Origin: Clostridiales bacterium
GTDB taxonomy: Bacteria > Bacillota > Clostridia > Christensenellales > UBA1242
NCBI GenBank assembly: GCA_015055905.1
Contig: SVHI01000006.1
Span: 1-62,762, forward strand
Length of the DNA stretch: 62,762 nucleotides
Direction of reading: 5' to 3'
In this document: one piece after another, positions 705 through 57,450 of the stretch
How positions within the stretch are numbered: position 1 is the stretch's first letter
How the letters are laid out: the number at the start of each line of letters is the position of its first letter
The notes under the pieces: generated by a model
The model's input: the letters and a program-made list of their open reading frames with translations, nothing else
Databases searched by the model: none
Told to the model about the DNA's origin: nothing
Position numbers and translations under genes: made by a program

Positions 705-1703
705 ATGGAAACATTGCTTGCAATCGATGGTGGTGGAACAAAAACTGAAGTTTTGCTTGCCACAACATCAGGAAAAGTTTTAGCGAAAAAAGTTTATGAC
801 GGAACAAACCTAAATAGTGTTGGTATTGAAAAGGCGTTTGGAATACTTGAAACTGCACTTATGGATTTTTCTGGCATTGCTCTTGAAAATGGTATGACAC
901 TTGCTGGCATCTATTTTGGTCTTGCCGGTGGCGTTAATGGAAACCATCAAGAACTTGTTTATAGTTATTTTAAAAACAAATATTTTAGAGACATTCCATT
1001 TTCGAATGCTGGCGACGACCTTAACTCTATTAACGTTGGTGTAAAAAACGCACCAAATGGCATTGCGGTTATTGCGGGAACTGGCTCGAATGTTATGCTC
1101 AAAAAAGACGGCTTTGTTCTTCCAAACCCACAACTTAGTGGTTGGGGATATTTGTTTGATAATGGTGCGAGCGGTTTTGATTTTGGCAGAGACGCAGTTC
1201 TTGCAGCAAAAGCGGAGTATAACGGAACAGGAAAACCAACCCTCATCACACAAATGCTTGAAACTAAACTTAAGAGTTCAGTGTTTGATTCACTTGAAGA
1301 AATTTATCAAAAAGGACCAAGATTTGTTGCAGGGCTTGCGCCTATTGTGTTTGATGCGTATCGCGCGGGCGACAGAGTTGCTGGGGAAATTATTTTGAAA
1401 CAAATTATGAATGTTGCAAATATGATTAACACTGGTCACGAAATTATTGGAAAAGAAAACGACGCAAAAGTTGGTCTTGTTGGTGGAATTTTTGCTCACG
1501 AAAAAACAATCTTTGAGCCAAATCTCAAAAAGATGATTTCGCCAAAACTTTCTATTGAATTTCCAAAAGAATCACAAATTTATGGTGCGTTGATGGAGGC
1601 TGCAAAAAACGCAGGCGTTTATGCCAATGACGAATTTTTGAAAAATTTCAATCAAACTTATGGTGCTCCAGTTTTGGACACTCCAGCATCACAAAAGGAA
1701 TAA
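705..1703 (+). CDS. BadF/BadG/BcrA/BcrD ATPase family, N-acetylglucosamine/MurNAc kinase-like
   Basis: IDGGGTKT, GLAG, IAGTGS and GWGYLFD motifs; RBS AGGAG. Confidence 0.85.
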   Translation: METLLAIDGGGTKTEVLLATTSGKVLAKKVYDGTNLNSVGIEKAFGILETALMDFSGIALENGMTLAGIYFGLAGGVNGNHQELVYSYFKNKYFRDIPFSNAGDDLNSINVGVKNAPNGIAVIAGTGSNVMLKKDGFVLPNPQLSGWGYLFDNGASGFDFGRDAVLAAKAEYNGTGKPTLITQMLETKLKSSVFDSLEEIYQKGPRFVAGLAPIVFDAYRAGDRVAGEIILKQIMNVANMINTGHEIIGKENDAKVGLVGGIFAHEKTIFEPNLKKMISPKLSIEFPKESQIYGALMEAAKNAGVYANDEFLKNFNQTYGAPVLDTPASQKE

Positions 1704-1828
1704 AATGAAGGCATATCGTGATAGATATGCCTTTTTTGATATAAATTTTAATAATTTTTGCGTTTTTGTTAAAACCATTTTGAGAAATTTTGTTTTGGGT
1801 GCTACAATTAAGTCGGGGAGTGATATTT

Positions 1829-2443
1829 ATGAGTGAAACTCAAGGAACAAAAAAGATTGGTGTATTTATTGCGAGGTTTCAACCTCTTCACAAGGCGCAC
1901 GTTTATGTGATTGAAAAGGCACTAAAAGAATGTGACAAGGTTGTGATTATGCTTGGCAGCAGCAATAAAGAAAATATGCCAAGAAATCCGTTCAACTTTA
2001 GGCTTAGAAAAGAGTTGTTGTCGGAGTCGCTCAGCAATAATCACGATATGACAAAAATACAAATCTATCAATTTCCTGATTGGTCGGAAGAAAATTTAGT
2101 GACTGACGACCACGTTTGGGGACACTATTTGTATTATAATATTGTTTCAAGAATCAATCAAAAAAACTTCACGCTTTATTATAGCGACAACCCAGACATT
2201 GTTAGGAATTGGTTTGATGATGAAGTTTCGAGATACATCTCATTTTGTTTTTTGAACAGACAAAAGGTTTTTGATGGGCTTTCTTCAACAAAGATTAGAG
2301 AGGCGCTATTAAACTTTACTGAAAAAGATAAAAAATATCTCTATAAGTTTTTGCCAGAAGCGGTTTTCGATAGGGTTGAAGAACTTAGAGATATTATTGT
2401 AAAGGTTCACAAAAACCCAAAGAAAGATTTTACAATGAAATAG
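1829..2443 (+). CDS. Cytidyltransferase-family nucleotidyltransferase, NMN adenylyltransferase (NadM-like)
   Basis: ARFQPLHKAH (HxGH-like), GSSN..RNPF, SSTKIR; ATG 1829 after GGGGAG. Confidence 0.8.
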   Translation: MSETQGTKKIGVFIARFQPLHKAHVYVIEKALKECDKVVIMLGSSNKENMPRNPFNFRLRKELLSESLSNNHDMTKIQIYQFPDWSEENLVTDDHVWGHYLYYNIVSRINQKNFTLYYSDNPDIVRNWFDDEVSRYISFCFLNRQKVFDGLSSTKIREALLNFTEKDKKYLYKFLPEAVFDRVEELRDIIVKVHKNPKKDFTMK

Positions 2444-2457
2444 AGGAGATAAAACTT

Positions 2458-3135
2458 ATGAATATGTTAGGTATGGCAATCGCTGCAAAGGGCTTAAATG
2501 AAATGTCTAGAAGAAGCGGCAGGGGCGGTGGATATTATGGTCCAAGTGAACCAACTGAAGAAGAGTATTTTTTAGGTGATTGTTTATCTATTATTAGGGA
2601 ATGTGCAAAAATGCCCGCAACTGAAGACACAATCATTCCTGTTTCAACAACAAGAAAAAGAACACGTGCTGAAAAGAAAAAGGGAGTTCCTAAAGAAGAA
2701 ACTCGTGAAATTTATATCGCACAAATCAATCCAAGAGGTGTGGGGTTTGAAGGAATTGAAACTCACACAGGTCTTTCACCGGTTATTGGTATGATTGATA
2801 ATGATAAAATGTTTGTTTATTCAACAAGCCCAGAGCATCTTGAGATTTTTGTTATTGAAGAATATGCTTATGACCATATGGGTGATTATTTCTATAGAAC
2901 TGGCAATGTTGCAAAAGACGGTCTCAGCCCAGACTTTGAAGAAATTAGAACAAAAATTGTTCGTGTTTATAATTCGAGAAGAGTTGAGCCACAAGCAGGA
3001 TTCACAACCAAGCCAGACCAAAAATCTTTCAGTGTTAGAGAAAATTGGATAAAGGTTGCTGACATCGTTGGAGCAAAGCGCAGAGCGTGCTTGGAAAGAA
3101 ATAAAGAACCAAATGCAGAGCAAATGGGTGAATAA
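2458..3135 (+). CDS. Hypothetical protein
   Basis: 225-aa ORF with RBS GAGGAG, directly behind the NadM-like gene; no family recognised. Confidence 0.7.
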   Translation: MNMLGMAIAAKGLNEMSRRSGRGGGYYGPSEPTEEEYFLGDCLSIIRECAKMPATEDTIIPVSTTRKRTRAEKKKGVPKEETREIYIAQINPRGVGFEGIETHTGLSPVIGMIDNDKMFVYSTSPEHLEIFVIEEYAYDHMGDYFYRTGNVAKDGLSPDFEEIRTKIVRVYNSRRVEPQAGFTTKPDQKSFSVRENWIKVADIVGAKRRACLERNKEPNAEQMGE

Positions 3136-12742: not shown

Positions 12743-15220
12743 ATGAAGAAAAAAAGAATATTACTAAGTTTGTTTCTAATATTGTCGATATTCTGTTTTG
12801 CTGCGTGCAAAAAAGACCCTGACACAACAACACCACCAGTAACTCCGCCTCCTGTTGAAACTCCTGTTGAGCCAACAGGACCTGTTGACCCAACTCTTAA
12901 TGTTGGAATTTCAGGCGGAAAACACTATGTGGGTGACGTGCTTGAGGATATTGACATACACTTAACCGCTGGTGACTCTGCTGGAACCATTGCTTGGGAC
13001 AACCCTTCTTATGTTTTGGTTTTGGGTGAAAACTTGTGTTCTTGGACCTTTACCCCAGACGACGCAAACGCGTTTAACACAAAGTCAGGAACAAAGACCA
13101 TTGTTGCTGTCAATAGGGCAGCTGTTCCTGAAATTGAAGTTTCAGTTAATGAGGGAACATTCTATGAAGGTGAAAAACTTTCAGTGGTAACGCTTTCTTA
13201 CACCCCTAATTCAATCGAGGGAACACTTGCGTGGACAAATCCAAACACGGAACTTGTTGTTGGAACCCACGAATATGAATGGACATTTACTCCAGACGAC
13301 ACTGATGCCTATGAAGTTGTGACAGGAACTGCTGAAGTTGAGGTTTCTGCACAATATTTAACATCGATTGAAATTAAAACCAACCCAACACAAATGACTG
13401 GTTATGAAGCATTTGAGACTCTTGACCAAACTGGTTTGACACTTGAACTTATTTATAATAAAGGAAAAAATGAAACAATAACCAGTGGTTGGGAAATTTC
13501 TTATAGCACAGGTGAAACTCTTGTTGCTGGAAGCAATTTGGTCACAATCACTTATCAAGAAAAAACTTGCACACTTGAAGTTAATGATGTTGCAAAGATT
13601 GAAGTTGCTGAGCCAACATTTAAAACAAAAACATATACAGGTGACCCATTACCTGTTGAAATTGAAACAAATGCATCAGCTCACTATTCGTATGATGAGG
13701 AACTTTCATTCACAAATGCAAATATGGCAGGACACCTCGTTGATGTTTCACTTGTTGACCCATCAAACTACGAATGGAAAACAGAAGAAAACAAATCAAA
13801 AACAACAATTCAAGTTCCATTTGTTATCAATAAAATTGCATTGGTTGTTACTGAAAAAGACTATAACAAGCCTTATGATGGCGAAGAACACGCTGCAACG
13901 GTTGAAGCCGATGGCGCTGAAACAATATATTATGCAACAACAGTGCTAAATAAGGATAACTATTCTTTGGTTGGTTCAACTGCAGAAATTAAATATAAAA
14001 ATGTTATTGCCGACGTCGTAATTTATTATTATATTGTTGGTGATGTTAACCACTTTGATGCTAGCGGAAGTTTGACTCTTAACATCACAAAACAACAAGC
14101 AAGATTTGCGTCAAACTATTGCTATGCAGTTGCAACAGGTGATGTTATCGAATATCCAGAAGAATATATTCAGCTTGTTAACGATAATGGTGATGAAGTT
14201 GAATTGCAAACTTCGCCAACCATCACTTATTATGCAGATGCTGCGAATCAAATCTTAACAAACAAGATTAATCACGGAAGTGCTTACGCCGGTGGTGCTC
14301 CATCTGAACCAAGTGAGGGAACACCTTATGCTGTTTTGATTGAATATTCAGACGATAACTATAACGCATCAACATTCGTTTATCTTTATATTGAATATGA
14401 CGATAATATGTTCTATGCATCTGGAAAAGAGGATACGTTTGCGTTTAAGTATAATCCAGTTGAATATGGTTCAACTGAACTTTGCACCTATTATGCAGAG
14501 TTCTATCTTCAAGAAAATGCAACTCTTGGTATTACTGAAATTGCTTGCAACTTTAAAATGGGTTCAGGCACCGAGAACAACAAGACAGGCGTTATTATCT
14601 ATAAAGATGGCGGTTATATGCTTGTTGATAGCGAAGGCAACACAACTGCTGTTGTTGCAAATGAAGAAGATTCAACAATCACAATCACAAATGGAAACAT
14701 TCTTCTTGAAAAATGGGTTATTCCAGATTATTTAGGAACTTATTCAGGTCAAACAATCGCTGATGATGCAACCCAAGAAGATGGCAGTGAATATGCAAAC
14801 AAATTCACATCAATTAGACTCTATAACCACTATGGCACAATTAGATTTGAACTTAACTATAATATGGCGGTTGTGACAATTCAGTCAAAGGTGCCTTGGG
14901 AACCAACAAAAACTTATGGTGGTTCTGGAACAAAGAGTGGTGTTGTTGAATATAGTGGAATCGTAACATCTTCAGGATTAAAACAAGAACTTGTTTTCTA
15001 CTGGACAACAAGTGAATATAGAAAATCGGGTGACAATGAGTATTTCTATCTTAGATGGGCTGCATACACTGGTTCAACTGCAGATACCCCTTTGGTTGAA
15101 GACCCACAATCTATGGTGTTTGAAGGTGGTTCAATCGCAACTGAATTGTATTTTGCAGAGTTAGCAGAAGCTGAACATTTAACACTTGATGTAACATACA
15201 CAAAACAAACAGAAGAATAA
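12743..15220 (+). CDS. Large lipoprotein with Ig-like/adhesin-type repeats
   Basis: Lipobox FAAC, Pro-rich linker, duplicated GT(I/L)AWxNP..WTFTPDD repeat, Ig-like segment LTSIEIKTNP..GLTLELIY. Confidence 0.75.
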   Translation: MKKKRILLSLFLILSIFCFAACKKDPDTTTPPVTPPPVETPVEPTGPVDPTLNVGISGGKHYVGDVLEDIDIHLTAGDSAGTIAWDNPSYVLVLGENLCSWTFTPDDANAFNTKSGTKTIVAVNRAAVPEIEVSVNEGTFYEGEKLSVVTLSYTPNSIEGTLAWTNPNTELVVGTHEYEWTFTPDDTDAYEVVTGTAEVEVSAQYLTSIEIKTNPTQMTGYEAFETLDQTGLTLELIYNKGKNETITSGWEISYSTGETLVAGSNLVTITYQEKTCTLEVNDVAKIEVAEPTFKTKTYTGDPLPVEIETNASAHYSYDEELSFTNANMAGHLVDVSLVDPSNYEWKTEENKSKTTIQVPFVINKIALVVTEKDYNKPYDGEEHAATVEADGAETIYYATTVLNKDNYSLVGSTAEIKYKNVIADVVIYYYIVGDVNHFDASGSLTLNITKQQARFASNYCYAVATGDVIEYPEEYIQLVNDNGDEVELQTSPTITYYADAANQILTNKINHGSAYAGGAPSEPSEGTPYAVLIEYSDDNYNASTFVYLYIEYDDNMFYASGKEDTFAFKYNPVEYGSTELCTYYAEFYLQENATLGITEIACNFKMGSGTENNKTGVIIYKDGGYMLVDSEGNTTAVVANEEDSTITITNGNILLEKWVIPDYLGTYSGQTIADDATQEDGSEYANKFTSIRLYNHYGTIRFELNYNMAVVTIQSKVPWEPTKTYGGSGTKSGVVEYSGIVTSSGLKQELVFYWTTSEYRKSGDNEYFYLRWAAYTGSTADTPLVEDPQSMVFEGGSIATELYFAELAEAEHLTLDVTYTKQTEE

Positions 15221-17328: not shown

Positions 17329-17362
17329 ACCAAATAACGAAATCTAAAATAGGAGGCGAGAT

Positions 17363-18202
17363 ATGCAAAATACTGATAGAGAAACTGCTCGCAAAGAGGT
17401 TGTTGGCAAAATTGACGGCAAACCTTATTATTATATTGACTCAAGCATAATTATTATTTTGCAACGTCTTGATGAATATATTGCGGCTGGCAGCACTGAA
17501 GAAGAACTCATTGCGTTTATGACAAAAAATAATCGTATGAATGAGGCTGGTGCGAAAGATTTGTTAAAAAAATATCATCTTAATCAAAAAGGTGAACTCA
17601 TTTTTTGTATAACACCAACCGTTTATAGAGAAACTATGCTTGATGCAAGAATCAAAGTAACTAGAGATTTTGTTAGAAACAACTGCAGGTTGGCAATGCC
17701 AAATATGAATCTTGCTCAGTTTGCAAATCTTGTAAAAACCATTGCGATTGAGTTTGAAGAGGCTAAGTCAAAAAACGGGCACAAGGGCTTGGCTCCTGAA
17801 ATTAAAAAAGAAACAGGGGTTGACGATAATCTTGAAGATAGAACAATACTTGCCGAGGCGGTTGCGTTCTCATTGATTGGGAAAAAAAATGTCAGGTTCT
17901 TAACCTGTGGCAGAAGCAAATCAAAAGTTAGAGAAAATGACAATGAAGTTATTTCTCTTGGTAAAAAGTATAGACAATGCCAAGTAAACTATGGAAGAAG
18001 TTTTCCTGAACTTAGGCGAGGTGAAGATGTTGTTAGTGTGTTTATGCACTCAAATCACAACGATTTTGGTGATAGCACTAGGGATAGCAAAGATGTTAGG
18101 GAGGTTTCGTTTAAAGTTAAACAAATTATAGAAAAGATTTTAAACGGAAAATCAAAACTAAATATATTAACCCCAGATGAAGTTGAAAAAGGTGGATTTT
18201 AA
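17363..18202 (+). CDS. Enlarged PIN-like nuclease-domain protein, copy 1
   Basis: YYIDSSII, CITPTVYRE, NLEDRTILAEA, FLT, SNHNDF, ILTPDE follow PIN motif order; RBS AGGAGG. Confidence 0.6.
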   Translation: MQNTDRETARKEVVGKIDGKPYYYIDSSIIIILQRLDEYIAAGSTEEELIAFMTKNNRMNEAGAKDLLKKYHLNQKGELIFCITPTVYRETMLDARIKVTRDFVRNNCRLAMPNMNLAQFANLVKTIAIEFEEAKSKNGHKGLAPEIKKETGVDDNLEDRTILAEAVAFSLIGKKNVRFLTCGRSKSKVRENDNEVISLGKKYRQCQVNYGRSFPELRRGEDVVSVFMHSNHNDFGDSTRDSKDVREVSFKVKQIIEKILNGKSKLNILTPDEVEKGGF

Positions 18203-18213
18203 GGAGGTTTGTT

Positions 18214-18426
18214 ATGGATAAAGAAAAGATTGAGGATATGGCTAACGAATATGAAAACGAACTCGAAAAACTTGAGGAAATTCGTGCAGAAAATGCTGCA
18301 AGATATGAAGGGCTTTCAGATGATGAGTTTGTGAGACAACTTGCTGCTGATTATGAGGCTATTTATAAAGACGCTATTGATGAAGACATCAACATCGACA
18401 TTGTTATGCCTGATGAAGAAGAATAA
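18214..18426 (+). CDS. Small acidic helical protein, partner of PIN-like copy 1
   Basis: 70 aa, very D/E rich, RBS AAGGAGG overlapping the upstream stop; homologous to 20124-20330. Confidence 0.75.
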   Translation: MDKEKIEDMANEYENELEKLEEIRAENAARYEGLSDDEFVRQLAADYEAIYKDAIDEDINIDIVMPDEEE

Positions 18427-18429
18427 AAT

Positions 18430-18460
18430 AAAAATCACGAGGATTTCCTCGTGATTTTTT
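18430..18460. terminator. Bidirectional terminator
   Basis: AAAAATCACGAGGA-tt-TCCTCGTGATTTTT. Confidence 0.85.
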
Positions 18461-19091
18461 ATTCTTCGTCTTCTTCATAATAGTCGCCGATTCCGTAGTC
18501 CCTTTGAATTTTTTGACTATATTTTTTAACGTGAACTTTTGCGTTAATGAGTCTGTAACAACGAATGATTTGCCTTTTTAATGTTCGACGGTCACTAATC
18601 AAGATTTCGAGTCCGTCCCAAGCAAACACCCAACCAGCAACATCAATGAGCATACCGATTGCGCCATAGTCTGACAAGTGGAAAATAATTTCTAAAAACA
18701 ACAATGCTAAGCCAAAAATAAGCCAAACAAGACCGAAAGTTGTTTTTCTTCTAAGTTTCTCTTTTAAGATGACAACCTTTTCTGCGTTGTGGCGTTTTAC
18801 GGCTTTGCGGATTCTTTGTTTTTCTTCGTTTGATGTGGTTTCTTCTGTGTGAATGTCGATTGTTATCTCATCATTCACTGGAATGCCTGAAGCACAAGTG
18901 TCGATATAGTCAGCAACTTGTTCATTCATAAGTTCATAGGTTAAGTATGAATATGGCGAGAAGAATTCGTCTGCTTCTCTTAGTCCCACATAAATTTGCG
19001 CCCTGCCGTCTTTGTCATAGTCAACATACTTTGCTTCCTTCATAACAGGGTGCTTTTTTGCTTTTTTAATTTGCTCTTTTAAACTGCTCAT
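18459..19091 (-). CDS. Hypothetical two-TM membrane protein
   Basis: FFSPYS..VADYID N-domain, two TM helices ending GWVFAWDG. Confidence 0.75.
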   Translation of the reverse strand: MSSLKEQIKKAKKHPVMKEAKYVDYDKDGRAQIYVGLREADEFFSPYSYLTYELMNEQVADYIDTCASGIPVNDEITIDIHTEETTSNEEKQRIRKAVKRHNAEKVVILKEKLRRKTTFGLVWLIFGLALLFLEIIFHLSDYGAIGMLIDVAGWVFAWDGLEILISDRRTLKRQIIRCYRLINAKVHVKKYSQKIQRDYGIGDYYEEDEE

Positions 19092-19167
19092 AATACCTCT
19101 TTTCAGCTGTGATTATACACCAAATTTGTGCAAATTGCAATAAATATTGGAAATATTAAAATGCATA

Positions 19168-19196
19168 TTGACACTACATTTTTCAAGTGATATGAT
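19168..19196 (+). promoter_or_regulatory. Sigma-A promoter of PIN-like module 2
   Basis: TTGACA-17bp-TATGAT with extended TG. Confidence 0.7.
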
Positions 19197-19225
19197 GGAA
19201 GTAACAAAAGAGGGAGGGGGAGTTA

Positions 19226-20113
19226 ATGTCGCACAAGAAACACAGAATGTATAATGATTCTGAAAAGAATCGCGGCTCGCATGTGTTTAGCTTGAATGAC
19301 GAATTTACAAATGAGGTTCCAACATATTTCTTAGATTCAGGTGTTGTTATCACTTACGCCAACATCGAAGAATGGGAAATGTATGGTGCCACGGATGAGG
19401 ATATCATCCAGTTGATGGTTAAAGGTAATCCATCAAATATTAATGAAGAGACAGCAAGGGTGTTGTTAGAACGCTATCGTCTCAACAAAGAAGGCAAGTG
19501 TGCTTTCTGTATTCCGCCAGCAGTTTATAAAGAAACTATGTATGACGGGGGAGGTCGTTTCCCTAAAACACGCAAATTTGTTACTGAGAATTGTTTTGTT
19601 GCATTCCCTAACATACCATTTGAACAATTCGCAGAACTTACTGCAGGTCTTGAGAAGGCACTTAGAGGTGCTAAGTCCTCTGACGGCTATTATGGTCTCA
19701 ACCCTGAATTTAAAAAGAATAAAAAAGGCAAACGCTATGATGCAAACTTTGAAGACCGTTTGATTTTGGCGCAAATCGCAGTCATTGCACTTCTTGGTAG
19801 AAAGAATGTCAGATTTGTTAGTTGTGCTCAACCAAATCAGGCTCAAAATGAACAACAATCGCTTGACCTTTATGGCAAAACTCAAAAATTGAGTGAAATC
19901 AAAATGCCAAGACCATCTCGTGAGGGATATGGTCCAGGTTCGCACGAAATCTTTATGCAAATTAACGGCAAGGATTTTGGTGATAGAACAAAGGGCAACA
20001 ACGGAATGAGACAAGTTTCATTCTTGATTGAAGAAATTGTTGAAAAATATCTCAACGGTCAAGCACAAGTTAGTGTTGTGACTCCAGATGAACTTGGAAG
20101 AAGAGAATTATAA
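19226..20113 (+). CDS. Enlarged PIN-like nuclease-domain protein, copy 2
   Basis: YFLDSGVV, CIPPAVYKE, NFEDRLILAQ, INGKDF, VVTPDE; colinear paralog of 17363-18202. Confidence 0.6.
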   Translation: MSHKKHRMYNDSEKNRGSHVFSLNDEFTNEVPTYFLDSGVVITYANIEEWEMYGATDEDIIQLMVKGNPSNINEETARVLLERYRLNKEGKCAFCIPPAVYKETMYDGGGRFPKTRKFVTENCFVAFPNIPFEQFAELTAGLEKALRGAKSSDGYYGLNPEFKKNKKGKRYDANFEDRLILAQIAVIALLGRKNVRFVSCAQPNQAQNEQQSLDLYGKTQKLSEIKMPRPSREGYGPGSHEIFMQINGKDFGDRTKGNNGMRQVSFLIEEIVEKYLNGQAQVSVVTPDELGRREL

Positions 20114-20123
20114 GGAGACTTTA

Positions 20124-20330
20124 ATGGATAAAGAATTGTTTGAAAAGTTGCTTAAGGGCTATCAAAGTGACCTTGCTCAACTTGACGAAATCAAAGAAGA
20201 AAACGCTGAATATTATTCTTCTCTTAGTGATGAAGATTTGATTGACGTTATCGCTGGCGATATGGCAGATGTTTATAACGATGCTTCAGAGCAAGGCGCA
20301 ACAATTGGAGAAGTTCCAACAAGAGAATAA
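20124..20330 (+). CDS. Small acidic helical protein, partner of PIN-like copy 2
   Basis: 68 aa from ATG 20124 (RBS AAGGAG); MDKE..Y..L..L(D/E)EI..ENA..Y..LSD pattern shared with 18214. Confidence 0.75.
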   Translation: MDKELFEKLLKGYQSDLAQLDEIKEENAEYYSSLSDEDLIDVIAGDMADVYNDASEQGATIGEVPTRE

Positions 20331-20335
20331 ATTTT

Positions 20336-20364
20336 AGACACGCCCCACTTGGGCGTGTTTTTTT
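20336..20364 (+). terminator. Intrinsic terminator
   Basis: AGACACGCCC-cactt-GGGCGTGTTT plus T tract. Confidence 0.8.
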
Positions 20365-20447
20365 GTGCAAAAATTTTGTCAGCGTTAAGCCCAAGTTGTA
20401 GTCTAGAGGGGTTATGATATTTATGATAGAAATCAAAAGGAGAAACT

Positions 20448-21779
20448 ATGGCAAATATCATAAATATTAATGAAGAAAATAACATTTTATCATTCGCCGA
20501 TGAACCGCTAGACATTGTCTGTGGAAATACAAATTATTGCTTAAACTTCAATTTTTCTGCACAATGGCAACAATTTACAAAGAAAATTGCGGTTTTTGTG
20601 GCTAATGGAGAAAAGCAACTTGTCGAATTTCAAGAAAGCGAATGTGCGGTTCCTGCAATGCCAAACGCGAACTCGTGTTTTGTCTACGTGCTTGGAATGG
20701 CTGGGGAAAATGAAAGTTTTATTTCAACATCTTTAAGACTAAAACTTATTCCAACTTGTGACTCTACAGTGGAGGCTGATTTTGAAGGTTTTAAAAATTA
20801 TTTGTCTTTGGCATTGGAAAAATTAAAACAATTTGAAGAAGGAAATTACAAAGCAAAAGTGGCTGAAAAATCAGAGTCTCAAGTTGACATAAAAGAAAAC
20901 CAAACAGTGGAGGGTTCAAAGAATTTTGTTGGTGAACTTCTCTATGGTGGAAAAGATGTTGCAACTTTGTCTCAATTTTCTAACGATAATCTGCTCGCTA
21001 ATGGCGACTTTAGTGTAAACCAAAGAGGGAAAAATTATTATCAAGGCAAGAACGGTTTAACTATTTTTTCTGCTGACAGATGGAAAATTCTTGGACAAAA
21101 CACCTCGTTTAATCTTACAACCAAAAAACTTATCATTTATGTTAATCACACTTTTTCGCAAGTTGTTGAAATTCCAACAGCACTTAGAGGACAAATGGTG
21201 ACCGCTTGTTTTAGCGTTGGAACTATTACAAAAGAAATTAATGCATTTGTAAGCGATGGAACAAATGAGGTGACAAAGAAACTCGAGGTTGGCGAAAATG
21301 TTATCTCGTTTGAAGTGGGTGCAGAAGCAACAACTTTAGAAGTGGGCTTTAGAGGAGTTGCTATTAACTCTAATACTTTCTTAAACTTTGTTAAGCTTGA
21401 AGTTGGTGATAAATTCACTGGGTTCAGGGCGAAGAGCGCGAGAGAAGAATTAGAAGATTGTCAAAAGTATTATTATGTAAAAACAACAGACGGCGATGAG
21501 GGAATCTTTGGTGCAGGAATGTGTATTTCGAATTCAGAAGCCAGAGTGTCGGTTAAACTTCCTGTTCAAATGAGGGTTGCCCCAACAGTGACTGCGACAG
21601 GCGAATTTTGTATTTGCTCAGCCAATATTGAAACAATGACCACATTTAATGTTCTTAGCTATGAAGGTGACTCTGTGACTTTAAGTGTTGTGACTGCAAC
21701 CACCGTTTCGGGAATGGGTGCGATGCTTAGAGCAAATGCCACAGGTGCAAGCATTAGTTTTGATGCCGAAATTTATTAA
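20448..21779 (+). CDS. Phage tail fibre/receptor-binding-like protein (orphan)
   Basis: BppU-like N-terminus, NLLANGDFSVNQRG, KLEVG, EELEDCQKYY, MRVAPTV motifs typical of tail fibres. Confidence 0.7.
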   Translation: MANIININEENNILSFADEPLDIVCGNTNYCLNFNFSAQWQQFTKKIAVFVANGEKQLVEFQESECAVPAMPNANSCFVYVLGMAGENESFISTSLRLKLIPTCDSTVEADFEGFKNYLSLALEKLKQFEEGNYKAKVAEKSESQVDIKENQTVEGSKNFVGELLYGGKDVATLSQFSNDNLLANGDFSVNQRGKNYYQGKNGLTIFSADRWKILGQNTSFNLTTKKLIIYVNHTFSQVVEIPTALRGQMVTACFSVGTITKEINAFVSDGTNEVTKKLEVGENVISFEVGAEATTLEVGFRGVAINSNTFLNFVKLEVGDKFTGFRAKSAREELEDCQKYYYVKTTDGDEGIFGAGMCISNSEARVSVKLPVQMRVAPTVTATGEFCICSANIETMTTFNVLSYEGDSVTLSVVTATTVSGMGAMLRANATGASISFDAEIY

Positions 21780-21793
21780 TAAAGGAGAACAAA

Positions 21794-22021
21794 ATGGAAA
21801 TGGATAATTTAGAAATTATTGAAGACATTGCTGATGTTGAAGAAGTAAAACTAAGACCTATTGGTGTGTATGTGAAGAGAGACAAAAATGGAAAAGTTAT
21901 TCAAATCAACAGTGAAATCTTTATTGAAGACTTAACAGGTTGGGAAAAGATTGATGAGGGCTTTGGCGACAAATATGCACACGCCCAAAGCTTATATAAA
22001 ATAAAAACAGATAGTGATTAA
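21794..22021 (+). CDS. Small phage tail-associated protein
   Basis: VYVKRDKNGKVIQINS..GWEKIDEGFGDKYAHAQ resembles small genes following tail fibres in Bacillota phages. Confidence 0.55.
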   Translation: MEMDNLEIIEDIADVEEVKLRPIGVYVKRDKNGKVIQINSEIFIEDLTGWEKIDEGFGDKYAHAQSLYKIKTDSD

Positions 22022-23115
22022 CTATCTGTTTTTTCATAATATATTTTTGATATTTTTTGAAGTAATTTTAAGAATTTTTTTGTATATGTTTTATACTCTT
22101 CAATTTCAACAAATTCGTTTGGTTTGTGTGCAAGGGCAAGGTCACCAACGCCAAAAATGATGGCGTCGCCTGAGTAAGAAGTCAGGTATCCAGCCTCGCA
22201 GCCACCACCAAAAACAACATCTTCACTTTTTGTTGTTTTGATTAAATTTTTAATTTTTTGCATATTTTTCATATAAAATGCAGGTATTTTTAGTGTATTT
22301 TGCAGTTTATATTTAAGACCAACGTAATTATTTTTGATTTCTTCAAGTTTATTTTCGATTTCTTTGATAAATAAATTAACTGAGTCTTCATCAAATGAGC
22401 GAATGTCAAATTTAAGTTCTAGTTTGTCAGCAACCTTGTTTGTTGCGTCGCCGCCAATGATTGTTCCGCAGTTTGATGTGAGGTTAAATCTTGATTGATT
22501 TTCTTCAATGAAGTTTATAATTTTTGCTGCAGCGCAAATGGCATTAACTCCATTTTGTGGGATAGAACTGTGACAGGTTTTTCCAGTGAGTTCGAGCGTA
22601 AACTCATAGCAACCCTTTGACATAAGTTTATATCTTGATTTTGTTGGTTCGCCGATAATTGAAAGTCTTGGATTTATTTTTAATTTTTTGAGATTTTCAA
22701 TAACATTTTCAATGCAACATAGAGATGTTTCTTCATCGGTAGTGAGCGCCGCTATAACGGGGTAAGGTTGAGATTTTATTTTTTCAATATTATCAATAAT
22801 TATTGCTGTAAAACTTTTCATATCAATGGTTCCAAGACCAAATAGTTTTCCGTCTAACTCAGCCAGTGTAAATGGGTCGGTGTTATATTCTTTTGTGCTA
22901 GGAACAACAGTGTCAATGTGTCCAGAAAGAACCACAGGACTAATTGATTTGAGTGCGGTGTTTATACCAATAAGAATTGATGGTTTGTTATTAATTTTGT
23001 TTCTTATAATTTTTATTTCTTTTACTTTAGTTTTTAATTTATTTTTTATAAAGTCAACAATCTCATCTTGACTGTTTGATGAGTTTATGCTGACAAGTTG
23101 TTTTAATGTGTTCAT
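22018..23115 (-). CDS. M20 family metallo-hydrolase (ArgE/DapE-like, acetylornithine deacetylase-like)
   Basis: SGHIDTV, GLGTIDMK, TTDEE, GEPT, HSS, AHKPNE; ATG 23115 after AAGGAG. Confidence 0.85.
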   Translation of the reverse strand: MNTLKQLVSINSSNSQDEIVDFIKNKLKTKVKEIKIIRNKINNKPSILIGINTALKSISPVVLSGHIDTVVPSTKEYNTDPFTLAELDGKLFGLGTIDMKSFTAIIIDNIEKIKSQPYPVIAALTTDEETSLCCIENVIENLKKLKINPRLSIIGEPTKSRYKLMSKGCYEFTLELTGKTCHSSIPQNGVNAICAAAKIINFIEENQSRFNLTSNCGTIIGGDATNKVADKLELKFDIRSFDEDSVNLFIKEIENKLEEIKNNYVGLKYKLQNTLKIPAFYMKNMQKIKNLIKTTKSEDVVFGGGCEAGYLTSYSGDAIIFGVGDLALAHKPNEFVEIEEYKTYTKKFLKLLQKISKIYYEKTDS

Positions 23116-23134
23116 AATCTTCTCCTTTTTAAGC

Positions 23135-23177
23135 AAATAAAAAACCCAGTGTATATGTTTCAAAACATACCACTGGG
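23135..23177 (-). terminator. Attenuator terminator upstream of the M20 gene
   Basis: Minus strand CCCAGTGGTATGTTT-tg-AAACATATACACTGGG-TTTTTT. Confidence 0.8.
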
Positions 23178-23260
23178 CGAAAAAGATTATAAAACATTTA
23201 ATCCAACAATATGTTTTGCAAGCACCAAAAATCGCACCTGCAAAACATTTTTGCAAGTGA

Positions 23261-23299
23261 CTATCTTTGATGATGCCAAAGCATTGTTGACTTAAACAT
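23261..23299 (-). CDS. Putative leader peptide MFKSTMLWHHQR
   Basis: RBS GGAGG, 12 codons, between consensus promoter and attenuator. Confidence 0.7.
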   Translation of the reverse strand: MFKSTMLWHHQR

Positions 23300-23327
23300 A
23301 GTTGTCCTCCTAATTGATTATGACTTA

Positions 23328-23356
23328 ATTATAGACATCAAAAAAATAATTGTCAA
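23328..23356 (-). promoter_or_regulatory. Consensus sigma-A promoter
   Basis: TTGACA-17bp-TATAAT on the minus strand. Confidence 0.85.
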
Positions 23357-23534
23357 TATTAATTTTGAAAAGATGAAAAATATAAATGCAAATAAAATTA
23401 TGTAAAGTGTTTATTTTTGAAAAAATTTAATATAAAAATACATTTTTGAGTGAAAAGTTTAAAAATTAAGATTTTGAGAATCGTTGACGATATTTTTTAT
23501 TTGTGATAGTATATTTTTGTTGAAGGAATATTTT

Positions 23535-49867: not shown

Positions 49868-50138
49868 TTTAAAAGAAACATTAAAAAAACGACTTTTTAA
49901 AAGCCGTTTTTTTCTTGGAAAAACCAATATGAGTAATTATTATTCTCTCATTTTTCAATAAGCCATTAACCATTTCTCCATATCTTGGGTTCGAATCCCC
50001 ACCTGCGGAGAGTTAGCTTGTCGAAACTAACCTCATAAACCTATCAAAACACTGTAATTGTCAGCATTTATGAGTCTGATTCTCTTCAAAAAGGTATCTA
50101 TTTTATATCAAATTTATATCAAAAATATATCACGAAAA

Positions 50139-51623
50139 TCATATAAAAACGCTAATTTCTTTTGATATATTTTGACAAGTTTTGCCACATGAGAAGGTCT
50201 TTTCACACCTTCCTTTTTTTATTAAATTAAATGTCGAGTAATTGGTACCGTAAGGACAATTTAAATAAATGTCGACAGTTTCTTCATCTATTTCTATTTT
50301 ATTAATTGTATAAGTAACAAATTCATAGTCATCTAGTTTTAAAGCATTTGAAAAATATTTTTTGATATATGGTTTTTTAAATCTTTCATCATCTTTACTT
50401 TTCTCATAAAATATTTCAGCATCTAGTTCAGTAATTCTGCTTTCAAGAAACTTTATTCTATTATTGGTTGTATCATTAAGAATTCCGTTTTCAAGAGCTT
50501 GAATAAGATTCTTTAATGACTTTTCACACTTTATTTTTTCTTCTTCATATTTTCTTAGTTGTTCTAGATTTTTTTTTTGCTTATATTTTTCTATAAGAAT
50601 TTTTGAAATGGCATCAATATTATAATGGTTTGAAATGAATGTTCTAATAAATGATGTTAGATAATCTTCAAGATATACTTTTTGATAAGCTGTTGCATTA
50701 CAAGTATGGTTTCTTTTTCTATTAAGACATTTGTAGTACCTATAAACCCAATTATGTTTTGAGGTTCCACCATCAACTTTAAAAGGTGCTTCACATTGTT
50801 TGCAAAAAATTTTACCTCTATAAATATAAAGTTCTTTTACATTACCACCATGTCGATAAGCGTTTTTGAGACTGATAACTTTTTTAAAAACATTTCTTTG
50901 AATGATGGGTGGGTAAATATCGTGAAAATATTCACCATCATATTGATACAAACCAGTATAATATTCTTTACTGAGAATTTTACGAACTGCTCCTGCTGAA
51001 AATAATTTTCCTGTCTTATAATGAGTGCACCTTCTTCTAAGTTTCTTTGCTATGTCTGTACAATGATGTCCCATTAAATATTGCTTGAAAATAAATTTTA
51101 CAACATTTGCTTCTTTTTCATCTATCACAAGTTTTTTATCTTTTATTTGATAACCATATGGTCTGATGCCACCATAATAATTGCCTTTCATTCGAGATTC
51201 TCTTAAACCACGCTTAACTTTTTGAGAAAGTTCAGCAGAGTAGTATTGATTTAATCCTTCTAATAAACTTTCTAAAATTATACCTTCAGGCGTATCTGGA
51301 ATATTTTCCATAGCAGAAACAACTGTTATGCCTATATCTTTTAAATTTTTCTTATGAATAACTGATTCATATTTGTTTCTTGAAAATCTATCAAACTTAT
51401 AAACTAAAATACAATCCCATAGTCTCTTTTTTGAGTCTGATAACATTCTTTGAAATTCAGGTCGATTATCATTGGTTCCTGTCATTGCTCGGTCAACATA
51501 ATATTCTAATATTTCAATGCCATTTCGTTCTGCGTATTCATTACAAACACGCACTTGTCCTTCAATACTTTGCTCTGTTTGACTATCGCTAGAATATCTA
51601 GCATAGACAACAGATTTTTTCAT
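50139..51623 (-). CDS. Large serine recombinase (integrase)
   Basis: YARYSS catalytic motif, DRFSR, PYGY recombinase domain, CKQC..YYKC..C zinc ribbon, coiled coil. Confidence 0.95.
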   Translation of the reverse strand: MKKSVVYARYSSDSQTEQSIEGQVRVCNEYAERNGIEILEYYVDRAMTGTNDNRPEFQRMLSDSKKRLWDCILVYKFDRFSRNKYESVIHKKNLKDIGITVVSAMENIPDTPEGIILESLLEGLNQYYSAELSQKVKRGLRESRMKGNYYGGIRPYGYQIKDKKLVIDEKEANVVKFIFKQYLMGHHCTDIAKKLRRRCTHYKTGKLFSAGAVRKILSKEYYTGLYQYDGEYFHDIYPPIIQRNVFKKVISLKNAYRHGGNVKELYIYRGKIFCKQCEAPFKVDGGTSKHNWVYRYYKCLNRKRNHTCNATAYQKVYLEDYLTSFIRTFISNHYNIDAISKILIEKYKQKKNLEQLRKYEEEKIKCEKSLKNLIQALENGILNDTTNNRIKFLESRITELDAEIFYEKSKDDERFKKPYIKKYFSNALKLDDYEFVTYTINKIEIDEETVDIYLNCPYGTNYSTFNLIKKGRCEKTFSCGKTCQNISKEISVFI

Positions 51624-51820
51624 TATACCTCCTTTATAGATACCTGCATAAATAGTATACCATAATGATAGGGAAGAGTAATAATGGTATATAAATAAAA
51701 ACGCAAAAAATCACATAAATATAATGAAAAAAATAAAAAATGACACCATTTATTAAAAAATAATGTCATTTTTGCAGTTTTTATATATTTACTTTATTAA
51801 AAAATAAAATTTTCTTTAAA

Positions 51821-53692
51821 TTATCCTTTAAGCTTTTCAACATTGTTTTGGAAATCTTCAAAAGACATTATTTGATTTCCTGCAAATGCTCTAAAATCAC
51901 CATTTATTTCTGCATAACAAAATCTAAAAATATTAGAATCTTCATAATACTCACTTGTACAATAATATAATTCATTATCAATTATTTTAATACATACATA
52001 ATTACATTCGCATTCGTATCTAACATTTGGAACTTTTAGATAAATACCATTATTAATCATTTCAACAGGCATAAAATAAAATTCTTCATTAACTTCACAC
52101 CCTGTTTTTTTAATATTTTCTAAAATTAAAAATAATGTCTTACGAAATTCTTCTTCATTATGATAAAATTTGTTGAAAACTGTTATGTTTGGACATATTA
52201 ACTTTAATAAATGATTAGTTAAAACATAATTAGTGGATTTCAATAACACTTCTTCGAAATATTTTTTTTCTTCCTCAAAAAAATTAGAATTTATTTTTGT
52301 TTGTTTTTCTTCATTTATAGATAATTGCTCAACAGGATTAATTTTGTTTTTTGGTTTCTTCTTTAATTCTAATTTAAATGGATTATATTGTTCATAATTA
52401 TTAAAATTCTTTATTTCATTTAAAATAATTATTTTATCTATCATTCCATCATTATATTGAATTTTAACTTCATTGTAAGCTCCAGTTGCAGGATAATGTA
52501 TATACATTTTTACATCTTCATAGTATTTAACACTCTCATTATTTAGCTTATATGCTCTACAAGGAGTATTATATTCACTTTCTAATTTTCTTAGATTGAT
52601 ATTTTCCAAATAGTTGATAATGTTTTCTTTTCCTTCAATTTTATTATCAGTATCTAATGAATGAAATACAGCATCATCTTTTAATATTCTATATAAACTA
52701 TATGTTGAGCTATCTTCCAAAGCAAGAGAAACAAGTTCTAATGCATCCAAATAATTTGATTTTGCTTTTTGTTGTTTTGCTAATTTGAATTCATGTTCAG
52801 GTAAATTCATATAGGTATCATAATATTTTTTTGAATCAACCAAATTTTTCTTACAAAGGTTATCTAATATAGAACGAAATTGTGTGTAATAAATAACACC
52901 ATAATCTTTTATCGATTTTCTAAATTCATATAACAAAGTTGAACCCGATTTGTATCTATTTGAAATTAAATCCAAAAGCGTTTTATTAAAGAAATCTTCA
53001 TTATAATAAACGACTTTATCATCTTTTGATAAAAAATAACCATCTTTCTTAGTTAGTTCTAAATATTCTTTTTTTAAGTTTTTAAAATCAGATTTTTTTA
53101 GTTTAACAGCATTATTGATAGAATCAGTGATTTTATACTTTTTATTTTTTAAATCTTGTTTAGTTGCAAATTTTACATAATAAACATTATCACAATTTTC
53201 AAATCTTTCTGCATAATACAATAAATTTAAAATTGAATTAGCATTTAGAGCATTGCACCACAAATATAATTTGGTACTTTTGCCCTTATCTTTAAAAATA
53301 TCACATATCATCGATGATGCTCTTTCATCACAATAGCTCTTAGACCAAAAATGTAAAGAATTTTTTGGAATATCAAATTCTTGAGCAAATTGATAAATGT
53401 TATAATCAATTTTTCGTTCATATGGTTTTTTTAATTCATCTCTATAATAGCGAAGAAAATCAACACCTATATCACTAGGTGGTGATAATTCAAAAAATAT
53501 ATGAATATCTTTCATTTCTGCTTTAGAACAACACTCTCCACAGCGAGGACAAGTTCTTCTTTCAAAATAAAGTTTGCTTGAAATTTCTTCTCCACAATTT
53601 CTACATTTTTTATACATAAGTTTTTCATAACTTTCTTTTGTTATAAAATCTGTAACATTTCCTTTTAAATTTTTTTCCATAATAAACTCCAA
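51821..53692 (-). CDS. Mosaic hypothetical protein (Zn ribbon + DUF1835/DUF3658-like + SnoaL-like)
   Basis: CRNC..CPRC; LYLWCNALNANS; YNEDFFNKTLLDLI; DDAVFHS..IEGKENIINYL. Confidence 0.55.
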   Translation of the reverse strand: MEFIMEKNLKGNVTDFITKESYEKLMYKKCRNCGEEISSKLYFERRTCPRCGECCSKAEMKDIHIFFELSPPSDIGVDFLRYYRDELKKPYERKIDYNIYQFAQEFDIPKNSLHFWSKSYCDERASSMICDIFKDKGKSTKLYLWCNALNANSILNLLYYAERFENCDNVYYVKFATKQDLKNKKYKITDSINNAVKLKKSDFKNLKKEYLELTKKDGYFLSKDDKVVYYNEDFFNKTLLDLISNRYKSGSTLLYEFRKSIKDYGVIYYTQFRSILDNLCKKNLVDSKKYYDTYMNLPEHEFKLAKQQKAKSNYLDALELVSLALEDSSTYSLYRILKDDAVFHSLDTDNKIEGKENIINYLENINLRKLESEYNTPCRAYKLNNESVKYYEDVKMYIHYPATGAYNEVKIQYNDGMIDKIIILNEIKNFNNYEQYNPFKLELKKKPKNKINPVEQLSINEEKQTKINSNFFEEEKKYFEEVLLKSTNYVLTNHLLKLICPNITVFNKFYHNEEEFRKTLFLILENIKKTGCEVNEEFYFMPVEMINNGIYLKVPNVRYECECNYVCIKIIDNELYYCTSEYYEDSNIFRFCYAEINGDFRAFAGNQIMSFEDFQNNVEKLKG

Positions 53693-53698
53693 ATTTAT

Positions 53699-55111
53699 TT
53701 ATCCGTCAATTTCTATTTTTGATTCAATACAAATTTCAGTAATATAGATTTTATCTGTTTTAATGTATACTTTACATTGATTGTATTCTGAGGAAGACAT
53801 AGGATAGGTTAATAAGATATGACCATTGTCTAGATTTATATCATTTAAGTTATTCGGTAAAACAACTTTTGCAAATACAAGATAATCTCTATTCAATGTG
53901 TTTTCAAAATAATCTAATATATTTTTTCTTCCTACTACTTCTTGATTTAAATAGCCAAATCTTAAAACAGTTTTATCGTTTATTCTTTTACAAATAGAGT
54001 GAACATCACCAAATTCAAAAGCATAATGAAATTGATGTAGATATTCATGATTTAGTTGCGATAAAGGTTTTTGTTGATGAGGAATAAAATCAACAATTTG
54101 AACTTCATAATCTTTACATTCCTTACCATTTTTTAAAATAATAGAATTTCCTTTTCTTTTTTCAACATCATATGTTTTTCCTATATCTAATCCTTCAGTA
54201 GTTGGAACATTTTTACTAGGTGAGCCATTAAAAATGACCTTTGAAGGTTGTAGTTTTTCAAATAAACTAGCTTCAAATTCTTTTTGTTTATTCTTTTTTA
54301 TGTTTACTAAATAATAATCTTCATCATAACCATAAACAACTGCAACTTGATAGATTTTACCATTCTTAAGTTCTTTTGTTGACGGTCCAATATATTTAAC
54401 AAACATATCAAATGGAAGATATTGATATCTATCAATGCCAGCATTTCTTTTTAAGGAAGAAACAAAATAAATGATATCAGAATTTGTAATTTCCATATTA
54501 AATTCTTTTTTTAATTCAATATATTCTAATAAACGCAACATAAAATCGTCATTTTGTTCATCTGTTGTTTCATCTCTTAAAAGAATGAGTGTGCCAATAA
54601 TATCATCTTTTTCTAGATTAAGTTTTTTTAATGCATTGATTAACATTTTCGTGTGTTTTTTAATCTTTGATTCGATAGTTATATCTTTTTTAGATTCATA
54701 TTTTCTTATTTGAAAGTTGCTTAAAAACTCTTCTTTGCTGATAATTGAATTTTCTTTTAATAATTTATACGCTTTTTCTAAATCTTCACCCCTAAATGGT
54801 GCAAGAGTTAGTTCAGATAATCCAAGTTTGATAATTAAACTCACAAGCTCATCAAATTCTTCGTCTGATAAATTACAGTTAAATTCTTCATCATCATAAT
54901 CAACATATCGAAAATCATCAAAAGGCTCCACGCTTTTAATATGTTCAATTTTAATTTCATGATTTCGATTGTAACTATCTGCAAGAGAAATCGTATCAAC
55001 ATCATTATTTGATTGATATATGTCAACTAAAATACCAATATCATAATCATCATTAAAATAGGAAACTTTAATTGGTTCAAGTTTGTATTTTTCTAAATCA
55101 CTTATTTGCAT
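53699..55111 (-). CDS. Mosaic hypothetical protein (two SH3-like repeats + SnoaL-like C-terminus)
   Basis: VKYIG..LKNGKIYQV and VIFNG..LDIGKTYDV repeats; EVVGRKNILDYF. Confidence 0.55.
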   Translation of the reverse strand: MQISDLEKYKLEPIKVSYFNDDYDIGILVDIYQSNNDVDTISLADSYNRNHEIKIEHIKSVEPFDDFRYVDYDDEEFNCNLSDEEFDELVSLIIKLGLSELTLAPFRGEDLEKAYKLLKENSIISKEEFLSNFQIRKYESKKDITIESKIKKHTKMLINALKKLNLEKDDIIGTLILLRDETTDEQNDDFMLRLLEYIELKKEFNMEITNSDIIYFVSSLKRNAGIDRYQYLPFDMFVKYIGPSTKELKNGKIYQVAVVYGYDEDYYLVNIKKNKQKEFEASLFEKLQPSKVIFNGSPSKNVPTTEGLDIGKTYDVEKRKGNSIILKNGKECKDYEVQIVDFIPHQQKPLSQLNHEYLHQFHYAFEFGDVHSICKRINDKTVLRFGYLNQEVVGRKNILDYFENTLNRDYLVFAKVVLPNNLNDINLDNGHILLTYPMSSSEYNQCKVYIKTDKIYITEICIESKIEIDG

Positions 55112-55205
55112 AGTGTTTTCTCCTTACAAATACATTATAGCAAAATCTGTGTCCAAAAAAACGGATTTTAAGGCAAAAAATAAAAATACTTATAATTTTT
55201 AAGTA

Positions 55206-55313
55206 ATAAAAAAACAACGACCTAGGTTTTTTAACCCAAACACACGAAGTGCATCATGTCGTTGTTTGAAAACTTAATACCACCTGAACACGAAGTTCTG
55301 CATTAAATTTTCT
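55206..55313 (-). ncRNA. Candidate small RNA with twin ACUUCGUGU hairpins
   Basis: TTGCAA-17bp-TATACT promoter (55320-48), no RBS/ORF, ends in AACAACGAC/GTCGTTGTT plus U tract. Confidence 0.5.
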
Positions 55314-55404
55314 ATTTGTAGTATAAATCAAACAAATAAAAATTGCAATGCATAATAAAAATAAAAACACTTGTATTTTATAAAAATTATGATATTTTCT
55401 TTAT

Positions 55405-55463
55405 AGAAGTGGCGAGTCCTTGAGACAATAGTAGCGATTTATCGTGAAGACCACTTCTTTTTT
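55405..55463 (+). ncRNA. Candidate compact three-stem RNA with loop-E motif
   Basis: AGAAGTGG/CCACTTCT closing stem plus T tract, GTC/GAC stem, AGTA-GCGAT/ATCGT-GAA. Confidence 0.45.
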
Positions 55464-55487
55464 ATTGTATAATATTTTAACCTTTTT

Positions 55488-55709
55488 CCTCCAAATTAAC
55501 CTTTCGGGTGCTAATGTAGCATAGTTAGTCATAGAGGTAAATGAGAGAAAATTTTTTGAGTCAACTTTATTGGTTGGCTTTTTTATTTTGTCAAAAATTT
55601 TTCTTTTGTTTCTCATTGACCTCTATACTCAAAAATTAAATGTTAGTTTGCATTTTACTAAGAACTATGCTCCATAGCCCTTTGCCGAAAGGTTAATTTT
55701 TTATGGAGG
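55488..55709 (+). repeat. Long imperfect inverted repeat (candidate ssDNA promoter, Frpo/ssi-like)
   Basis: AATTAACCTTTCGG/CCGAAAGGTTAATT, AGCATAGTT/AACTATGCT, ATAGAGG/CCTCTAT, AATGAGA/TCTCATT nested pairs. Confidence 0.7.
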
Positions 55710-55717
55710 TAAAAGAA

Positions 55718-57447: not shown

Positions 57448-57450
57448 TGG

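Follow-up and report, generated by a model that had tools for sequence, protein, structure and literature searches.

Two adjacent gene pairs for an enlarged PIN-like protein and a small acidic partner in a Clostridiales genome, candidate VapBC-like modules

Known systems and the layout of the two modules

PIN-domain toxins form the largest toxin-antitoxin family, and the control of a PIN nuclease by a protein inhibitor is established as a general principle. To our knowledge, almost all the antidotes of PIN toxins carry a DNA-binding domain and are encoded upstream of the toxin. Small helical antitoxins without a DNA-binding domain are known from other systems: epsilon (of epsilon/zeta) and PaaA2 (of PaaA2-ParE2) only bind and block their toxins, which are a kinase and a gyrase poison, respectively, and these systems have a third gene that encodes a regulator. 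The toxin gene precedes the antitoxin gene in HigBA, MqsRA and HicAB, where the toxins have RelE-like or HicA folds and the antitoxins are helix-turn-helix (HTH) proteins. Here we describe two neighboring gene pairs, modules A and B, found in a stretch of 62,762 nucleotides (nt) of a Clostridiales bacterium (contig SVHI01000006.1), to which we refer as the window. In each module the first gene encodes an enlarged PIN-like protein (PIN A or PIN B) and the second one a very acidic protein of about 70 amino acids (small A or small B). Searches of an open-access library of papers turned up no account of a PIN protein with an acidic mini-protein of this kind as its partner.

Module A begins with the gene of PIN A (17363-18202, plus strand), whose product has 279 amino acids (aa) and an isoelectric point (pI) of 8.97. 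The small A gene (18214-18426, plus strand; 70 aa, net charge -19, pI 4.05) begins 11 nt past the stop codon of PIN A, and a GGAGG motif overlaps this stop. A terminator-like, bidirectional hairpin at 18430-18459, with a 13-pair stem and T runs on both strands, would terminate module A as well as a convergent membrane protein gene. In module B, PIN B (19226-20113, plus strand; 295 aa, pI 7.62) is preceded by a promoter-like site at 19168-19196 on the same strand, made of TTGACA, a 17-nt spacer and TATGAT with an upstream TG; with 11 of 12 matches it is the top-scoring site of the region, as a match to the consensus only. The small B gene (20124-20330, plus strand; 68 aa, net charge -14, pI 4.05) begins 10 nt past the stop codon of PIN B, with its ribosome-binding site overlapping the stop. 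The open reading frame (ORF) was listed from 20088, which would give 80 aa; the ATG at 20124, which gives 68 aa, is the more likely start because AAGGAG lies 6 nt upstream of it and the 68-aa orthologues match this length. The module ends in a terminator-like hairpin at 20336-20360 (plus strand; 10-pair stem with 6 GC pairs, followed by a T run).

PIN A and PIN B share 39% identity along 262 aligned residues (E 5e-63), well above what chance would give, and small A and small B share 38% (E 1e-12). The initial annotation of this DNA had read here two colinear paralogs of 279 and 295 aa, each directly followed by a homologous, very acidic gene of about 70 aa and by a terminator, and this layout stands. 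PIN A lies 34 nt behind an upstream DUF308-like membrane gene, and no promoter-like site comparable to that of module B was found between them. A 318-nt contig from a metatranscriptome library covers 18089-18406, across the junction of PIN A and small A, which hints weakly at expression.

Fold, active site and predicted complex

The structure of the large proteins was modeled with AlphaFold2. The model of PIN A, built on a 7-row alignment, had a mean predicted local distance difference test (pLDDT) of 69.6, and that of PIN B, built on a 24-row alignment, had a pLDDT of 87.2 and a predicted template modeling score of 0.86. Structural alignment against all representative chains was carried out with VIA-align after Foldseek had given nothing. 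The chains that aligned with the PIN B model at Z ≥ 8 were 10, all of them VapC/PIN proteins, and nearly all of the top 40 rows belonged to the PIN superfamily. The best structural match was VapC21 (Z 9.3, root-mean-square deviation 3.5, 133 of 135 residues aligned). For PIN A the top 35 rows were essentially all PIN/VapC, with a best Z of 8.0. As modeled, then, PIN A and PIN B adopt the PIN/VapC fold, which is defined by a Rossmann-like alpha/beta/alpha arrangement with a parallel five-stranded sheet. Considering that 133 of the 135 residues of VapC21 are aligned, the whole VapC fold is embedded in a protein of twice its size, and this complete fold is shared with the toxins of VapBC and FitAB (PF01850), from which PIN A and PIN B differ in being about twice as long through insertions. 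The insertions amount to about 130 residues beyond the VapC/PIN fold, and the secondary structure of the models places them in a loop or hairpin ahead of helix 4 and, beyond strand 4, in a long helix and an additional strand. Both the PIN-type fold, which the initial annotation had left to be checked, and its claim that these proteins are about twice the length of VapC are borne out by the models.

The sequence searches were less direct. PIN A, PIN B, small A and small B had nothing above cut-off in Pfam, PHROGs, NCBIfam or PADLOC, and the single 12-bit match of small B in PADLOC-DB 2.0 was spurious. Neither PIN A nor PIN B reaches the gathering cut-off of PF01850 (23.6 bits), a further difference from VapBC/FitAB, and the link to this family is transitive, through the short relatives described below. 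A six-frame search of the window's own genome with PF01850 gave no match. Profile searches of PDB sequences with alignments A1, A2 and A3 returned noise or nothing, and in the protein atlas PIN A met only unnamed clusters and one PIN_halo cluster at 0.87, which is taken as a lead only. The profile of the long family retrieved 24 proteins at E ≤ 0.001 among 1.84 billion cluster representatives. One of them, P0019, is a 1053-aa repeat protein that was treated as a false match and excluded from the alignments; 15 other representatives were scanned and none matched a Pfam family. A subgroup of 320-370 aa (P0020-P0027) also exists among the representatives.

The weaker matches found in the bacterial family of the window are PIN-like proteins of 200-280 aa, the short relatives. 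Six of the 12 that were scanned are above the PF01850 cut-off (best 36.7 bits, E 7e-9). The long-family profile A2 and the short-relative profile A5 were aligned by hhalign at 98.8% (E 1e-16, 147 columns), and in this register D26, E90 and D159 fall on D7, E63 and D129 of the short relatives. A six-frame search of the window's own genome with A5 singled out PIN A (E 8e-12) and PIN B (E 3e-8) and nothing else; against the PDB the same profile gave weak VapC rows (E 0.015 and 0.26) that ranked below a spurious cryptochrome match. The short relatives lack the helix insertion of about 45 residues that is present in the long clade, to which PIN A and PIN B belong.

In the alignment of 22 sequences D26, P85, V87, E90, C108, L143, D159, N231 and G236 are invariant, while 90% or more of the sequences have D234 and R160; in the 24-row alignment A8, D234 is invariant and D94 (D107 in PIN B) is kept in at least 90%. 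The PIN-type motifs that the initial annotation had listed in order in both paralogs are therefore not only present but conserved family-wide, through D26, E90, D159 and D234. The long clade shares with VapBC and FitAB the conserved acidic residues that follow strand 1 and strand 2 and that stand at the N-terminus of helix 4. After strand 4, where the short relatives keep the canonical T-x-D / N-N-x-x-D-F motif, the long clade is without it, and a relaxed hhalign alignment sets VRFLT-C-G of the long clade against IIT-F-D. D234 belongs to the motif N-x-x-D-F-G, located after the added strand, which resembles the N-N-x-x-D-F of some short relatives; judging from the sequence, it may be the source of the fourth carboxylate and is a candidate replacement for the residue missing after strand 4.

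The active-site positions for this comparison were taken from Matelska et al. 2017 (PMC5499597). In the same source, DUF4411 (PF14367) and PIN_12/DUF4935 (PF16289) are described as VapC-like, stand-alone proteins of more than 130 aa that are suspected toxins, and the partners given there for DUF4411 belong to the HTH or DUF955 proteins and differ from a small acidic protein (PMC5499597). The short relatives matched DUF4411 and PIN_12 below the curated cut-offs, and PIN A and PIN B did not match them.

Turning to the small proteins, Pfam scans of small A, of small B and of the orthologues of both gave no AbrB, ribbon-helix-helix (RHH), HTH or Phd family at E ≤ 1; the initial annotation, which had noted a partner devoid of HTH and RHH, agrees with this result. 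They had no sequence match in the PDB, no usable match in the protein atlas was obtained for small A, and the word-index search returned only 33 clusters, all unnamed. No similarity to epsilon or PaaA2 was found in the Pfam and PDB searches, and the partner has no detectable similarity to VapB.

The complex of PIN A with small A was then predicted with an interface score (ipSAE) of 0.87 (0.86, 0.87 and 0.87 in the individual runs), and the best of three controls scored 0.00. For comparison, 116 of 157 solved complexes attain the same mark and so do 2 of 215 mismatched pairs, counts that apply here only roughly because alignments of our own were used. The partner had a pLDDT of 74 or more, and 64% or more of the contacts were common to the runs. 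The confident interface comprises residues 27-28, 85-90, 92-97, 148-161, 180 and 182 of PIN A, which places it on a family-specific loop and along the C-terminal edge of the sheet, where it surrounds D26, E90 and D159. On the side of the partner, residues 1-57, nearly the whole protein, take part in it. Small A is thus predicted to bind PIN A over its catalytic face. A small adjacent gene whose product is predicted to lie over the active site would be another point of likeness with VapBC and FitAB; the partner differs from their antitoxins in being ultra-acidic and in having no AbrB, RHH, HTH or Phd domain.

Conservation of the pair, distribution and genomic setting

The genomic context of the long clade was available from four independent sources: the window and loci L001, L041 and L040. 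Locus L001, from the metagenome-assembled Clostridia genome G562, carries both modules in full synteny with the window, and its orthologue of small B has 68 aa and 87% identity. Both modules are also present in L041, a metagenome contig. The context is different in L040 (genome G699), where a PIN-like gene of a third clade is followed by a 75-aa acidic gene and then by an unrelated aldehyde-dehydrogenase gene. A hidden Markov model (HMM) of the small proteins matched the ORF directly downstream in 6 of 7 long-clade PIN genes, and the partner of the seventh was cut by the end of its contig. In the short clade (loci L009-L024, PIN-like proteins of about 200-250 aa), which belongs to the same bacterial family, the ORF of 65-82 aa directly upstream of the PIN-like gene matched the same HMM in 9 of 11 loci, eight of these nine ORFs being in the training set; the independent matches of this HMM, counting both clades, were L010, L019, L022, L040 and L041. 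None of 11 more divergent PIN-like loci had an ORF matching this HMM. The small-protein profiles of the long and the short clades align at 90.9% (E 1.1e-6), with 57 of about 70 columns in register, and a motif L-S-D/E-E-E/D is found within the aligned columns. Both components are then homologous between the two clades, but the small proteins of the short clade are less acidic, with net charges mostly between about -2 and -8, and +1 in L009. At this last locus (1288-2889, minus strand) a single upstream small gene is followed by tandem short PIN-like genes of 233 and 230 aa.

Conservation of the pair elsewhere, which the initial annotation had set as a point to be checked, is thus observed in four sources, one of them with a different context, and a homologous small gene stands beside the short relatives. 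Its claim that the PIN gene comes first describes the long clade, where the downstream partner gene departs from VapBC and FitAB, and does not extend to the short relatives, in which the small gene comes first, in the canonical order. The pair has been kept while its gene order was inverted, which argues for a functional couple. Across the three loci with both modules, the A pair evolves fast (52-66% identity for PIN A and 46-59% for small A) and the B pair slowly (77-85% for PIN B and 87% for small B).

The window's genome has about 1.19 Mb in 41 contigs and is 93% complete; its relatives are Clostridia of about 1 Mb. The search of 401 genomes of the order gave matches only within the window's own bacterial family. 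Among 401 genomes of this family, 31 had a match at E ≤ 0.01 and three had strong matches, namely the window's genome, G562 and G699. One locus was obtained in the genome search with alignment A1 and one contig in the metagenome scan with alignment A7. No relative was recognized among 98 pattern matches of A1 in viral contigs, nor among 590 pattern matches of the divergent subgroup A6 in metagenomes, and a tblastn search with PIN B had no match in 50,697 phage records or 72,556 plasmid records. In genome G485, of the same genus, coaE and the genes for the DUF308-like membrane protein and a methyltransferase follow one another directly, from which it follows that positions 17329-23483 of the window are extra relative to this one compared genome. 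This block of about 6.1 kb, missing in G485 between the last two of these genes, contains both modules, the membrane gene between them, a tail-fibre-like gene, a small PHROG-matching gene and an M20-type peptidase gene (22018-23256, minus strand). In genome G445 two of its members, the genes for the peptidase and for the membrane protein, are found on separate contigs, so the block is a mosaic. The PIN modules are carried as accessory DNA with a patchy presence in the bacterial family, and an accessory, patchy distribution is also a trait of VapBC and FitAB.

The stretch was also found in metagenomes of animal gut and faeces, in 20 runs from 15 studies, 6 of these runs being possible sources of the window DNA itself. 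Three DNA runs from other studies cover it end to end at 90-99% identity, and the sole indel listed in the DNA runs is an in-frame insertion of 3 nt in the variable N-terminus of PIN B.

The membrane protein gene between the modules (18459-19091, minus strand; 210 aa) lies outside both of them. Of 201 genomes surveyed in the bacterial family, 102 carry this gene, most of them without PIN modules, and it has other neighbors in related genomes. It was therefore rejected as a third component. Taking into account that it stands alone elsewhere, with differing neighbors, we consider this gene unrelated to the modules that flank it, as the initial annotation had proposed. The protein is 91% identical among the three loci with both modules, compared with 62% for CoaE and 86% for the short-chain dehydrogenase/reductase (SDR). 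It has no family match and shows a cytoplasmic N-terminal domain, two predicted membrane helices and an acidic tail.

Directly after module B, at 20448-21779, there is a gene for a 443-aa protein whose C-terminal two-thirds match the tail-fibre family phrog_4492 (E 2e-23); it had weak tblastn matches to four phage records, three of them annotated as tail-fibre genes. It is followed at 21794-22021 by a gene for a 75-aa acidic protein that matches phrog_24451 (E 5e-14). Both genes are conserved in L001, and no other phage structural genes are found nearby. They may be a prophage remnant or encode a domesticated receptor-binding protein. The tail-fibre-like gene was rejected as a part of the system, being absent beside the module of G699. 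Two other features of the window were recorded. An 825-aa predicted lipoprotein with internal repeats is encoded at 12743-15220, upstream of the SDR gene and coaE, and has 839 aa in L001. Along roughly the last 12 kb (50001-62000) the G+C content falls to 0.23-0.28, from about 0.35 before, with a change in GC skew; this end of the window may be a compositionally distinct island.

Proposed role and alternative explanations

With moderate confidence, we consider that the modules are probably VapBC-like toxin-antitoxin or abortive-infection modules with a new type of antitoxin that lacks a DNA-binding domain. For them we infer RNase activity, toxicity, inhibition and a trigger, as follows. Each module would be a two-gene operon whose first gene encodes a metal-dependent PIN endonuclease, most likely an RNase. 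The acidic protein of about 70 aa encoded by the second gene would bind 1:1 across the catalytic face and hold the nuclease inactive. If the partner were lost, by proteolysis or by a stop of its synthesis as in a phage-induced shut-off, the nuclease would be freed, would cut cellular RNA and would arrest growth. The two diverged pairs lie side by side, presumably without cross-reaction, which is a further difference from VapBC. A partner without a DNA-binding domain could not autoregulate its operon as VapB does. Three of the features by which VapBC is recognized are lacking, namely a DNA-binding domain in the partner, an upstream partner gene and a direct PF01850 match, and the fourth acidic position is missing, so that the modules are described here as working in a VapBC-like way and are not filed as members of that group. 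Regarding the other systems with which they share a trait, epsilon/zeta and PaaA2-ParE2 differ in their toxins, the present one being a PIN nuclease, and no candidate for a third, regulatory gene was seen; HigBA, MqsRA and HicAB share the toxin-first order with the long clade and differ from it in the fold of the toxin, here PIN, and in the HTH of the antitoxin, which the partner lacks.

Several observations weigh against this explanation. Neither PIN A nor PIN B had a Pfam PIN match even at E ≤ 1, the models of PADLOC-DB 2.0 did not match them at E ≤ 0.1, and in Foldseek searches of the PDB neither model had a match at E ≤ 0.001, probably because the insertions disrupt the local alignment. 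The fourth acidic position after strand 4 is Cys or Gly in the long clade, where T-x-D is absent, and the partner does not have the DNA-binding domain that defines VapB. The 90.9% match between the small-protein profiles joins charged, helix-like sequences of low complexity. As to the predicted complex, the alignment of the partner had only 4 rows, and the solved VapBC complexes may lift the score through likeness. PIN A seems to be co-transcribed with the conserved membrane gene that precedes it and not to be driven by its own promoter. Finally, the 318-nt RNA contig could derive from DNA in the library, and a contig that spans two genes is not the same as a single transcript.

A further-reaching version of this explanation can be formulated, which we regard as rather doubtful. 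It supposes an enlarged PIN RNase whose fourth acidic residue has moved to N-x-x-D-F-G, silenced by an ultra-acidic helical protein that would mimic RNA, would not bind DNA and would serve in either gene order. The two insulated paralogous pairs would act as abortive-infection sentinels, set off once the host no longer translates the short-lived mimic, and they would represent a new two-gene toxin/immunity class restricted to this lineage of gut Clostridia with reduced genomes.

Among the other explanations, the first in order of probability, although we judge it unlikely, is that of a regulated, non-toxic nuclease of RNA processing or turnover. The small protein would then serve it as a stable subunit, for regulation or as a chaperone, instead of as a labile antidote, and the pair would belong to accessory RNA metabolism and not to addiction or defence. 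The position of PIN A, 34 nt behind a conserved membrane gene and with no clear promoter of its own, is consistent with such a role, and so is a partner without a DNA-binding domain and hence without autoregulation of the toxin-antitoxin type. No mobile-element genes directly adjoin the modules, the phage and plasmid collections searched held no homologues, and the modules are stably syntenic in three sources. On the other hand, the strong matches are confined to 3 of the 401 genomes of the family, G485 lacks the block at the corresponding site and the pair stands in a different context in G699, a pattern that speaks against this explanation, as do the duplication of the pair and the fast divergence of module A. 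The predicted cover of the catalytic face also fits inhibition better than assistance.

It is quite improbable, in our opinion, that the small protein is not an inhibitor of the nuclease but an activator, a substrate-specificity subunit or a nucleic-acid mimic aimed elsewhere, for instance at a nucleic-acid-binding protein of a phage or of the host. In its favor, mimicry of DNA or RNA is known from very acidic small proteins, no known antitoxin family matches the partner, and a tail-fibre-like gene adjoins module B. Such a role is however at odds with the complex model, in which the small protein lies on the catalytic face of the PIN protein and all controls scored 0.00, and with the position of the small gene, which adjoins the PIN-like gene in all 7 long-clade modules and in 9 of 11 short-clade loci; moreover, the evolutionary rate of each small protein follows that of its own PIN partner. 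Very improbable is the idea that the long-clade proteins are catalytically dead PIN scaffolds with a binding or structural role together with the small protein, which would agree with the replacement of the canonical fourth acidic residue by Cys or Gly but not with invariant D26, E90 and D159 and with D234 and D94 kept in at least 90%, since four or more acidic residues are left and such strict conservation is unexpected in a dead site.

What distinguishes the VapBC-like modules proposed here is that a PIN nuclease is paired with an unrelated, unannotated and extremely acidic mini-protein, and that the same pair occurs in both gene orders inside one bacterial family. Considering that the family is tiny (24 of 1.84 billion representatives) and that the general principle is established, the advance would be incremental rather than conceptual. 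If confirmed, the modules would extend the toxin-antitoxin and defence repertoire by a new fold or type of antitoxin and by an enlarged architecture of PIN proteins, and the two diverged pairs, 1 kb apart, would offer a natural test of how gene order and cognate specificity evolve. It would also mean that such modules are retained even in gut Clostridia whose genomes measure only about 1 Mb.

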